64,000 nucleotides of DNA. Source: a virus. The position numbers and the translations under genes were made by a program. Each line of letters starts with the position of its first letter. Within the stretch, counting starts at the first letter, position 1. The stretch is from IMG/VR virus record IMGVR_UViG_3300025585_000040, positions 1 through 64,000 of that record; one strand, given 5' to 3'. This document shows positions 10,931 through 60,561 of the stretch, piece after piece. Below the pieces are notes generated by a model. It did no database searches and was not told where the DNA came from. It saw nothing but the letters and a program-made list of their open reading frames with translations.

Positions 10931-11573
10931 TTACAAAGCAACACCCGAACAGTGGGAGCATGTACACATTTGCGCCGGTATGAAACACCAAGTCCCGTGG
11001 GCTACTGCGGATTGCCTTCTTGAACTCCGCGACAGGGTTCAGTTGCTGGAGGATGCAGTTCAGAAGCACATCGTCGAAACCAGTGCCAACATCTTGGCCC
11101 TGGCAAGCCGAGTCGAGACGCTGGAGCGCTCCCAGCAACAGCCTGAGCTGATTGACGCGGAAGAAAACAACCGCCGGTTTCATGAGTGTATGGACTTGAT
11201 CCGCAATGCCACGCCAGAACAGATCCGTGCAGCCGCCGAGTTGCCCGATCGTCCAGCATCAAAGGTCTACGAGATCAATGAACCGCTGAAGTTGACACCC
11301 GAGCAGGCGCAACAGGTCAGGGATCTGCTTGCGCCAGAGCCGCGACGCAACTATCCGGCCAAATCAGATAGTTCGCTGCTGGAGCGGGTGGCCATTGCCA
11401 TCAGCCGATGTGAAGACTCCTCCTGCTGGGACGACGAGGCTGTTAACTGGGAGCCCGAAGCGCGCGCCGCAATCCGTGAGGTGGCCTTGTGGCTTAACGA
11501 AGCTCCCTTGGATCTTTACCCCGGCGATCGCGGCATCGTCGTCAATGCCCTCTATGACCAAGCAAACCAATGA
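10923..11573 (+). CDS. Hypothetical mosaic protein
   Basis: 216-aa ORF overlapping both neighbours. Confidence 0.65.
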   Translation: MTDYKATPEQWEHVHICAGMKHQVPWATADCLLELRDRVQLLEDAVQKHIVETSANILALASRVETLERSQQQPELIDAEENNRRFHECMDLIRNATPEQIRAAAELPDRPASKVYEINEPLKLTPEQAQQVRDLLAPEPRRNYPAKSDSSLLERVAIAISRCEDSSCWDDEAVNWEPEARAAIREVALWLNEAPLDLYPGDRGIVVNALYDQANQ

Positions 11574-59650: not shown

Positions 59651-59926
59651 CTACTTGTTCTTCTTCTCGTATTCTTCTTTGGTCATCCACTCTTGTTCAC
59701 CCCAGCGCTTCAGTGACTCCTGACCTTCGGTTTCTTCACCCCTGTAACCACCACCTCGTTTTTTGTACGCCTGGGCGAGTAGTTGTGCTTTCCTAGCCGA
59801 ATAAATTAGTTAGCCTTACGGCTACGACCACTCTCCACTCTTGCCACCTTTGGACCCACGCATGATCTGCTGTTTCAGTCGTTCACGAAGATCAGGTTTG
59901 GTATAGCGCCCTTTGTTTTCAGCCAT
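59651..59926 (-). CDS. DUF5872-like basic protein interrupted by a 27-nt coding gap (candidate ribosomal bypass)
   Basis: GAGGT SD, then MAENKGRYTKPDLRERLK..GSKGGKSGEWS / gap / ARKAQLLAQAYKKRGGGY..SLKRWGEQEW; absent from the ORF track. Confidence 0.7.
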
Positions 59927-60524
59927 AACTACCTCTGGTTTTCAGATAATTTAAAGAGTTTTCCAATGTAATTATGCTATCACCCAATAATCCAATTCCC
60001 CGGTTACAGTTTCTGCATAAGAGTCCGCGCACATCTCCAGTTTCATGGTTGTGGTCGACGACTAAACCTTGAGTTGGCTTTGGTGGCGTACAGCAAATTG
60101 CACAGGCACCGTTTTGGGCCTCGAGCATAACCTCATACTGATCTTTAGTTATTCCATGTCGGTGATATTTTTTATAGTCCTCGTGACACTTTCTGTCTGA
60201 TTCAAGTTTTTTGTCCTTGTATTCCGGGTGTAAATCAACCCATTTACCCCATGCGCGGGAAGAGCATTCTTTGCATTTAGACCTTAAGTACCTCTTCCCG
60301 TCTTGAACGCGATAAGAGAACTGATCCCACTGAAGAATTCTTTTGCACGCACTACATTCCTTTTTCCCTGAGGTACCGTACAGTTCTACCAGACGGACGT
60401 GAACACTGGATTTACAGTTTCTGCAAACGGTATCGCGTCTTACAGCACCGGTCTTAGTTTTACCTTTTGAATGAAAAAGGTCGTAAGGCAGCGCTTTCTT
60501 ACATTCTTTACAGGTCTTAAGCAT
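59919..60524 (-). mobile_element. Endonuclease VII-family putative homing endonuclease
   Basis: Two CxxC-rich N-terminal repeats; QNGACAIC..VVDHNHETGDVRGLLCRNCNRGIG. Confidence 0.88.
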
Positions 60525-60561
60525 GCGCCTTTCGGATTTTTAAAATCCTAGCACAAAAAGC

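Follow-up and report, generated by a model that had tools for sequence, protein, structure and literature searches.

How can a protein still be made from a gene that is interrupted by a stop codon and a stretch of untranslatable DNA, and why would such an interruption lie beside a nuclease gene? These questions are raised by a small gene within 64,000 nucleotides (nt) of viral DNA, positions 1 to 64,000 of the IMG/VR record IMGVR_UViG_3300025585_000040, that were analysed as a whole and are referred to here as the window. The interrupted gene (the target gene), the nuclease gene that precedes it and all of their neighbours are located on the minus strand. The ATG of the target gene, at 59926, is overlapped by 8 nt by the end of the nuclease open reading frame (ORF), stop codon included (ATGGCTGA). 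The 5′ half is translated as MAENKGRYTKPDLRERLKQQIMRGSKGGKSGEWS and is interrupted after GEWS by a TAG stop codon (59824-59822), 95 nt from the end of the nuclease ORF; beyond 27 nt, the same frame resumes with ARKAQLLAQAYKKRGGGY...KNK and ends at a stop codon at 59651-59653. The interpretation that we favour, and to which we assign a probability of roughly 0.7, is that nuclease and gap belong to one homing cassette, that ribosomes would hop over the gap and that the gap would render the occupied allele immune to the nuclease.

Judged by its profile matches, the target is a small DUF5872-like gene of ~77 codons (phrog_17747) that is very widespread in phages. The part that precedes the gap, designated N′, matches positions 14-44 of the phrog_17747 profile (E value 2.4e-9) and the part that follows, designated C, matches positions 45-63 (E value 2.1e-5). 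The halves are contiguous in the profile, with the break exactly between S and A of WSARKA, and intact homologues of 76-78 amino acids (aa) have an unbroken ...GKPGQWSARKAQ... or ...GKPG(Q/E)WSARKAQ... at this position. As the halves abut in the profile and the intact homologues are uninterrupted, the 27 nt constitute a clean insertion between Ser and Ala. Membership in the Pfam family DUF5872 (PF19197) is sub-threshold, as the C part scores 19 bits against a cut-off of 27.5. An assembly error was considered as the origin of the gap and is excluded; contigs from three other studies span the gap site with no insertion or deletion (indel), and the 27 nt are therefore real DNA. A preliminary description of the locus had recorded an endonuclease VII-family ORF that overlaps the start of the gapped gene by 8 nt and terminates ~95 nt from a gap within the WSARKA codons, and these features were all confirmed.

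The extent of the insertion was established by DNA comparisons with ungapped relatives. Homology to the ungapped relative L004 ends at the stop codon of the peptidase gene and restarts at the first codon of the C part, and the ~765-nt insert in the window substitutes for the 90-nt native 5′ part of the target gene (Table 1). In a second backbone, known from contigs of ~85 kb and with its ungapped parental type represented by L250, the insertion is at TG|G of the Trp codon and a truncated duplicate, the former 5′ half of the gene, is preserved upstream; the window has no such duplicate. A clean break in homology, with a restart at the landing codon, is thus documented in two different phage backbones (the window versus L004, and L052 versus L250). 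When the left junctions in the window and in L052 were compared, the leader motif TTTTGTGCTA proved to be shared with the left end of the elements of this second lineage (lineage 2). There are also deletion derivatives (L062 and L060) in which the old 5′ half is fused to the nuclease gene at its middle or its end. The preliminary description had regarded the cassette as nuclease plus gap and this was largely supported, but it had overlooked the entire element-borne replacement of the 5′ part of the gene.

Table 1. Coordinates, on the minus strand of the window, of the inserted element, its components and the resident part of the target gene
Feature	Position	Strand	Details
Whole inserted element, ~765 nt	59798..60561	-	Leader + nuclease gene + N′ + coding gap; from DNA comparison with L004
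Element leader	60525..60561	-	Upstream of nuclease ATG; small hairpin GGATTT-TAA-AAATCC; motif TTTTGTGCTA
Endonuclease_7-family nuclease, putative homing endonuclease, 201 aa	59919..60524	-	Pfam PF02945; PHROG endonuclease VII families
N′ part	59825..59926	-	34 codons, ATG to take-off UCG (59827-59825); element-borne; homologous to native 5′ part
Coding gap, 27 nt	59798..59824	-	UAG, hairpin, A/U-rich spacer, landing UCG
Gap hairpin UAGCC/GUAA/GGCUA	59824-59811	-	UAG = 59824-59822
A/U-rich spacer	59810-59801	-	
Landing codon UCG	59800-59798	-	
C part	59651..59797	-	48 codons, ARKAQLLAQAYKKRGGGY...KNK, + stop; native phage DNA; 78% DNA identity to L004 begins exactly here

Within the element, the nuclease gene and N′ have a mean nucleotide identity of 81% between 21 distinct contigs, versus 55-58% for the 960-nt flanks, and the element is more conserved than its flanks in all 210 of the contig pairs. 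The element-type N-terminus, MAE(D/N)K..YTKP, is present only in gapped alleles. The cassette is therefore probably a free-standing homing-endonuclease element that carries a replacement copy of the first 34 codons of its target, as it has one insertion site in different genomes, is present in some and absent from other close relatives, is younger than its surroundings and subsequently decays.

At the left end of the lineage-2 elements (L052, reverse strand ~10960-11000; L279 and L280), an 8-bp hairpin, TTTTGTGCT-ATTGTAAGA-AAAGCACAAA, comes after the truncated half of the old gene and just before the nuclease ATG. The 3′ arm of this hairpin reads as the native R-K-A-Q codons, and the structure may be a relic of the 3′ half-site of the target or may regulate expression of the nuclease.

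A co-occurrence of gap and nuclease across related contigs had been predicted in the preliminary description and was found, both when loci were collected through their neighbours and when they were collected through the nuclease or the gap. With the neighbouring gene for a 216-aa peptidase-like protein as anchor, 49 syntenic loci were fetched. The small gene is intact in 24 of these and the nuclease is absent from all 24; one syntenic locus (L018) has a homologous 29-nt gap without the nuclease. A profile of the intact protein matched at least 600 IMG/VR stretches, and the best 80, which were examined, are all ungapped with no nuclease within 1.5 kb. The nuclease of the second lineage, used as query, has 37 close relatives with ≥74% identity, and there is a gap in every one of these for which downstream DNA is available; all 38 alleles sampled through the nuclease are gapped. 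A 21-mer that spans the take-off site and hairpin is present in 22 IMG/VR contigs, and a scan of metagenomes provided 78 further real instances. When pooled, the viral and metagenome contigs contain 142 instances that represent 89 distinct N′-gap-C cores. A full nuclease gene is located directly upstream in 70 of these 89 alleles, in all 70 with the nuclease overlapping the start of N′ in the same arrangement; a 3′ remnant is present in 7 and no nuclease in 4, and 8 could not be judged, so that 70 of the 81 judgeable alleles have the full gene. Genes of the N′ type that had lost the gap were looked for in vain.

The gap has a conserved organization. In the window, it reads TAGCC-GTAA-GGCTA, followed by ACTAATTTAT and then TCG, and the codon that precedes the gap is also TCG. 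These two UCG codons are the landing and take-off codons of Table 1, and the hairpin, as a 25-mer, is predicted to fold with -8.6 kcal/mol (z score -2.65). Gap lengths among the 89 alleles are 23 nt (4 alleles), 24 nt (28), 25 nt (1), 26 nt (1), 27 nt (31), 28 nt (12), 29 nt (11) and 33 nt (1), which places the C part in the frame of N′ in 60 alleles, and in the +1 and +2 frames in 13 and 16, respectively. The C part always begins directly after UCN, and in 87 of 87 alleles its reading frame is open over 47-62 codons. UCG is the take-off codon in all 38 nuclease-sampled alleles, compared with 7 of 89 ungapped genes that use UCG for this Ser, and the landing codon (n=89) is UCG in 85, UCU in 3 and UCA in 1. 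UAG directly follows the take-off codon in 38 of 38 nuclease-sampled alleles; in the pooled set of 89, UAG after UCG was required by the regular expression used for collection, a condition that does not apply to the 38. In none of the gaps is another UC(G/A/U) triplet found between the take-off and landing codons. A+U accounts for 88% of the spacer, in which there are 16 G among 820 nt, and a UCG take-off codon and a UCN landing codon just before GCN are kept despite spacer indels of 7-19 nt.

A hairpin with a GNRA loop is present in 88 of the 89 alleles. Six loops are used, GUAA, GUGA, GGGA, GCAA, GAAA and GAGA, and one variant with a 24-nt gap combines a GTGA loop with a UCU landing codon. 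The stem, UAGCC/GGCUA, is invariant and, as it never varies, provides no covariation evidence for the hairpin. The gap differs at 0-13% of positions as opposed to 39-80% at neighbouring synonymous sites, a 5-20 times greater conservation. For N′, the ratio of non-synonymous to synonymous substitutions (dN/dS) is 0.005 at a synonymous divergence (dS) of 0.40 in 17 alleles, and the equivalent ratio for polymorphisms (pN/pS) is 0.07-0.17 within gap-length classes, giving an overall range of 0.005-0.17. With regard to a possible nascent-peptide signal that would prime take-off, this conservation of N′ is extreme, but so is that of the native N part, and N′ has no similarity to gp60. The C ORF has pN/pS values of 0.12-0.18 in the 23-, 28- and 29-nt gap classes, and alleles without a nuclease retain the hairpin, the matched codons and an open C part.

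Loop type and gap length are associated. Among the 32 cases with gaps of 23-25 nt, 31 have GUGA, GGGA or GAGA loops, which together with the 3′ arm create GAGG or GGAGG, and among the 56 with gaps of 26-33 nt, 55 have GUAA, GCAA or GAAA loops, which create AAGG. This may reflect phylogeny, or it may indicate that an internal Shine-Dalgarno-like site sets the landing distance.

Taken together, the pattern of conservation in and around the gap indicates that ribosomes most likely hop over it. In the mechanism that we envisage, the hairpin UAGCC-GNRA-GGCUA would form where ribosomes with peptidyl-tRNA-Ser stall at UCG-UAG. These ribosomes would then slide across the A/U-rich spacer until they re-pair with the next UCG, and translation would restart at GCN (Ala). 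Other routes to the C part, and one other structure, were evaluated and rejected. Read-through would encounter two or three in-frame stop codons, and 29 of the 89 gaps are not multiples of three; a single frameshift fails as the +1 frame in the window contains TAA and the open frame is not that of the C part. Separate initiation of the C part would lack an in-frame ATG, GTG or TTG and, in the 29-nt gaps, CTA and TCG are the only in-frame codons that follow a stop codon. An alternative pairing, of UAGCCG with the landing-site sequence CGGCUA, is not conserved in alleles with GCA CGU after the landing codon. A search of the window for a phage-encoded tRNA-Ser or suppressor tRNA detected only a tRNA-Leu(UAA).

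Free-standing homing endonucleases normally avoid cleavage of their own genome through sequence differences in the target. Here, in a mixed infection, the nuclease would cut gap-free alleles at or near the WSARKA codons, repair of the cut allele would copy the cassette in, and the gap would then keep the target sequence from being restored where the element-borne N′ meets the resident C part. An immunity function for the gap fits the anatomy, as the gap is located at the mapped insertion point and N′ is near-native in sequence at the junction.

The protein encoded by the nuclease gene matches Pfam Endonuclease_7 (PF02945) over residues 122-195 with 81 bits (E value 6e-23, cut-off 23.6), and also several PHROG families designated endonuclease VII. 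Its core motif, CxxC...DHNH...CxxCN, has residues C141, C144, D157, H158, N159, H160, C170, C173 and N174 that are invariant in the 15 homologues compared (48-67% identity to the window protein). The ~120 extra residues at the N-terminus contain four CxxC pairs, consistent with two zinc-ribbon-like modules, and all 15 homologues keep these four pairs. In an AlphaFold2 model (mean predicted local distance difference test score, pLDDT, 83), the nuclease has a beta-beta-alpha-Me fold like that of T4 gp49. The best match found by Foldseek is the sequence-specific enzyme Hpy99I (E value 3.9e-5), followed by T4 endonuclease VII (1e7l/1en7/2qnf; E values 4e-3 to 1e-2, 31-36% identity over 81-97 columns), with template-modelling (TM) scores that are low because of the extra domains. 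T4 mobA is a member of the Pfam HNH family PF01844, and a BLASTP comparison of T4 60.1 with the window nuclease was not significant. The proposal in the preliminary description that the two nucleases belong to different families consequently holds at the level of Pfam (PF02945 versus PF01844), but both are members of the beta-beta-alpha-Me fold superfamily. No cultured phage was found with a nuclease more than 40% identical to that of the window. The distribution of the gene in the genomes compared argues for site-specific homing over the resolution of Holliday junctions.

Several observations weigh against the interpretation as a homing cassette with ribosome hopping and gap immunity. The linkage of gap and nuclease is not absolute, four alleles having a gap without any nuclease, although this would be expected for decaying homing elements. 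All of the gaps descend from one ancestral cassette, so that the counts do not represent independent events, and some of the alleles were collected by searching for the hairpin sequence itself. The C part may have diverged between contigs before the invasion, and its low dN/dS alone is therefore no proof of translation once the gap had arrived. A Shine-Dalgarno-like triplet of the kind found 5-7 nt ahead of the landing codon in T4 is missing; the only such motif (AAGG, GAGG or GGAGG) belongs to the 3′ arm of the hairpin and precedes the landing codon by 9-19 nt. One allele (L280, 2190-2230) has a full nuclease gene and a 24-nt gap, TAGCTATAATATTAAATAATTTCG, without a G+C hairpin. A portion of the gap, CCGTAAGGCT, is similar to the native codons GCG CGT AAG GCT (GCGCGTAAGGCT); the target sequence is thus not simply destroyed, and the gap may have originated from a duplicate of the target that degenerated. 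Among the sequencing runs listed, none recorded as RNA contains this stretch, and one metatranscriptome has no contig there. The allele L280 also retains the UCG take-off codon, the UAG and the UCG landing codon, and could be either a dying allele or a natural test of the need for the hairpin.

Of the alternatives, it is possible, although unlikely, that the cassette and the hopping are real but that the gap is not an immunity device, being instead either a throttle that limits expression or a scar from the origin of the element, in the form of degenerate, duplicated target codons; any immunity would then have another source. The resemblance of the 5′ half of the gap to the native codons that follow WS (CCGTAAGGCT versus GCGCGTAAGGCT) would be explained by this, and as only about half of the ribosomes bypass the gap in T4 gene 60 (bioRxiv 10.1101/2022.08.31.505936), a gap necessarily lowers the yield. 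A scar or throttle would not, however, account for the placement of the gap precisely where element and resident DNA meet, which is also the insertion point as mapped (TG|G of the Trp codon). Without the gap, N′ joined to C would read as an almost native sequence, N′ not being heavily recoded near the junction; gap-only alleles persist after loss of the nuclease, as expected of resistant alleles; and the search for an N′-type allele that had lost its gap gave none. That the Endonuclease_7 gene is simply the ordinary resolvase of recombination junctions in these phages, positioned incidentally by a gapped gene, is scarcely credible. The Pfam family is named after the Holliday-junction resolvase of T4, and T4 endonuclease VII is among the fold matches, but the nuclease is missing from all close relatives with an ungapped gene, is inserted at the same codon in two unrelated backbones, decays by deletion, has the additional ~120 residues with four CxxC pairs and has sequence-specific Hpy99I as its best structural match.

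The remaining alternatives accept the cassette and dispute the hopping. Inactivation of the target gene, with translation ending at the UAG and the C part an untranslated relic whose conservation pre-dates the invasion, is improbable. The C part is resident phage DNA, so its divergence between contigs may well be older than the insertion, and some related phages (loci L028-L043) seem not to have the gene; but strong protein-level selection on the element-borne N′ (dN/dS 0.005 at dS 0.40) would be pointless for a dead gene. Nor would inactivation predict a gap 5-20 times more conserved than synonymous sites, UCG take-off and UCN landing codons before GCN that are maintained through spacer indels of 7-19 nt, or a C ORF that is intact in 87 of 87 alleles, including old alleles in which the nuclease has decayed or been lost. 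Still less probable is the removal of the 23-33 nt from the RNA, by a mini-intron or a processing event. Splicing would tolerate any gap length equally, but it does not depend on a stop codon immediately behind a codon whose copy recurs at the 3′ end, or on a lack of other UCN triplets in between, and 23-33 nt is far below the size of a self-splicing core. Between 58500 and 61500, there is no match to an Rfam intron or ribozyme at E values up to 1, only a chance match to the patAB leader, and the features of the gap correspond item by item to those listed for the gene 60 cassette. A homing cassette with ribosome hopping and gap immunity remains the interpretation that best accommodates these data.

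With regard to hosts and distribution, a blastn search with the region gave no match to the phages in GenBank. The intact target gene is present, but not syntenic, in Synechococcus phage S-EIVl and in Puniceispirillum, Roseobacter and Pelagibacter phages, and a similarity of tail fibres to those of Synechococcus phages is only a hint as to the host. In a scan of genomes, four of six matches were by chance and the two real ones are contigs of 2.7-2.9 kb (L305 and L306) in metagenome-assembled genomes (MAGs) assigned to Bacteroidota (Crocinitomicaceae, Bacteroidetes); these are probably mis-binned phage fragments and, as such, no evidence for a host. In a freshwater metagenome run (X7), a 13.3-kb contig with a depth of 183 matches the window only over 37 nt around the gap (59800-59836), with flanks unlike those of the window, and the gap module is therefore also present in a different, much more abundant phage of that sample. 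The target gene family has also been hit at a second site. At L074 (1000-1900), a longer DUF5872 gene is divided after ...KGGGYRD by a different Endonuclease_7-like gene (37% identity), leaving two ORFs, with no gap or hairpin and with an ATG of its own for the second ORF (MPLKKPQESLKAWTKQKW...), and a related nuclease has thus entered the same gene family without bypass.

To our knowledge, T4 gene 60 is the only well-studied case of long-range hopping on bacterial ribosomes. The evidence leans towards the cassettes described here being a second family, targeted independently, of efficient programmed long-range hopping by ribosomes in phages, in another gene and in phages of different hosts, with a minimal module of 23-33 nt carried by a homing element of the Endonuclease_7 type. 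If so, the minimal module would consist of UCG-UAG, the 5-bp UAGCC/GGCUA stem, a GNRA loop, an A/U spacer and a UCN landing codon, a much smaller cassette with which to dissect take-off, scanning and landing. The 89 natural alleles, with eight gap lengths and six loops, would be available for this, and the natural variants in length and loop would define the minimal requirements for hopping. A homing nuclease combined with a bypass gap would be a recurring evolutionary solution rather than a one-off and, given the stem in common with T4 gene 60, bypass cassettes would be a general, portable device that protects the insertion sites of homing elements themselves. There would also be a testable case of a homing nuclease in the Endonuclease_7 family, and a warning for annotation, in that small phage genes that appear split beside nuclease genes may be whole genes.

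Full-text searches of the literature found no paper that describes an Endonuclease_7/phrog_17747 cassette system, but there are several known systems with which it can be compared. With T4 endonuclease VII (gp49) and Hpy99I, the nuclease shares the beta-beta-alpha-Me core and the CxxC...DHxH...CxxCN zinc/active-site motif, and it differs from them in the ~120 additional N-terminal residues with two zinc-ribbon-like modules and in behaving as a selfish element. Free-standing homing endonucleases that are accompanied by a recoded segment of their target, such as T4 seg and mob, are similar in being inserted in or beside a conserved gene and in their presence/absence among close relatives, co-conversion of flanking sequence and decay once fixed; in the system described here, however, the halves of the target are parted by an untranslatable gap that requires recoding by the ribosome. 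The byps of Magnusiomyces capitatus mitochondria (27-55 nt) are also short, mobile, hopped inserts that begin with a stop or unassigned codon (bioRxiv 10.1101/2022.08.31.505936). They are, however, miniature elements resembling GC clusters, with many per genome, no nuclease gene and mitochondrial translation, whereas there is one insert per genome here, tied to a nuclease gene, in phages of bacteria.

The closest comparison is with T4 gene 60 and MobA, an element attributed to Bonocora et al. 2011 (as cited in bioRxiv 10.1101/2022.08.31.505936). In the MobA element, the ORF of an HNH nuclease overlaps by 8-32 nt an N-terminal extension with a target-homologous region, and bypass of the gene 60 type is confined to one topoisomerase II site in T4-like myoviruses, with nothing similar reported elsewhere in phages (Manning & Atkins, bioRxiv 10.1101/2022.08.31.505936). 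The parallel drawn in the preliminary description, of a mobile cassette like that of MobA and gene 60 but in a different target gene, is borne out by this architecture. In both systems, the ORF of a homing nuclease overlaps, out of frame, the start of an element-encoded, target-homologous N-terminal part, and the insert has the coding gap at its right end; the take-off codon is matched by the landing codon, with UAG directly after take-off; gap length is not restricted to multiples of three; and alleles with a decayed or lost nuclease keep the gap. Both gaps also have a hairpin with a stable tetraloop, that of T4 starting GGA-UAGCC-UUCG-GGCUA with the same 5-bp stem, UAGCC/GGCUA. The differences are equally clear. 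The target here is the ~77-codon phrog_17747/DUF5872-like gene rather than topoisomerase II, and the nuclease is of the Endonuclease_7 rather than the HNH (PF01844) family, without sequence similarity to T4 60.1/MobA. The gap has 23-33 nt versus 50 nt (20 nt in one Aeromonas clade), the matched codons are UCG for Ser rather than codons for Gly or Asp, the loops are all GNRA and a Shine-Dalgarno-like triplet 5-7 nt upstream of landing is lacking. The 5′ part of the target gene is replaced in its entirety, whereas the T4 gene is split into two functional ORFs, and the element is found in uncultured freshwater or estuarine phages rather than T4-like myoviruses. Relative to the Topo2L/gene 60 cassettes, it therefore occupies a different gene and a different site, with only the 5-bp stem in common, and as three of the five base pairs in that stem are fixed by the UAG, even this likeness may have arisen by convergence.

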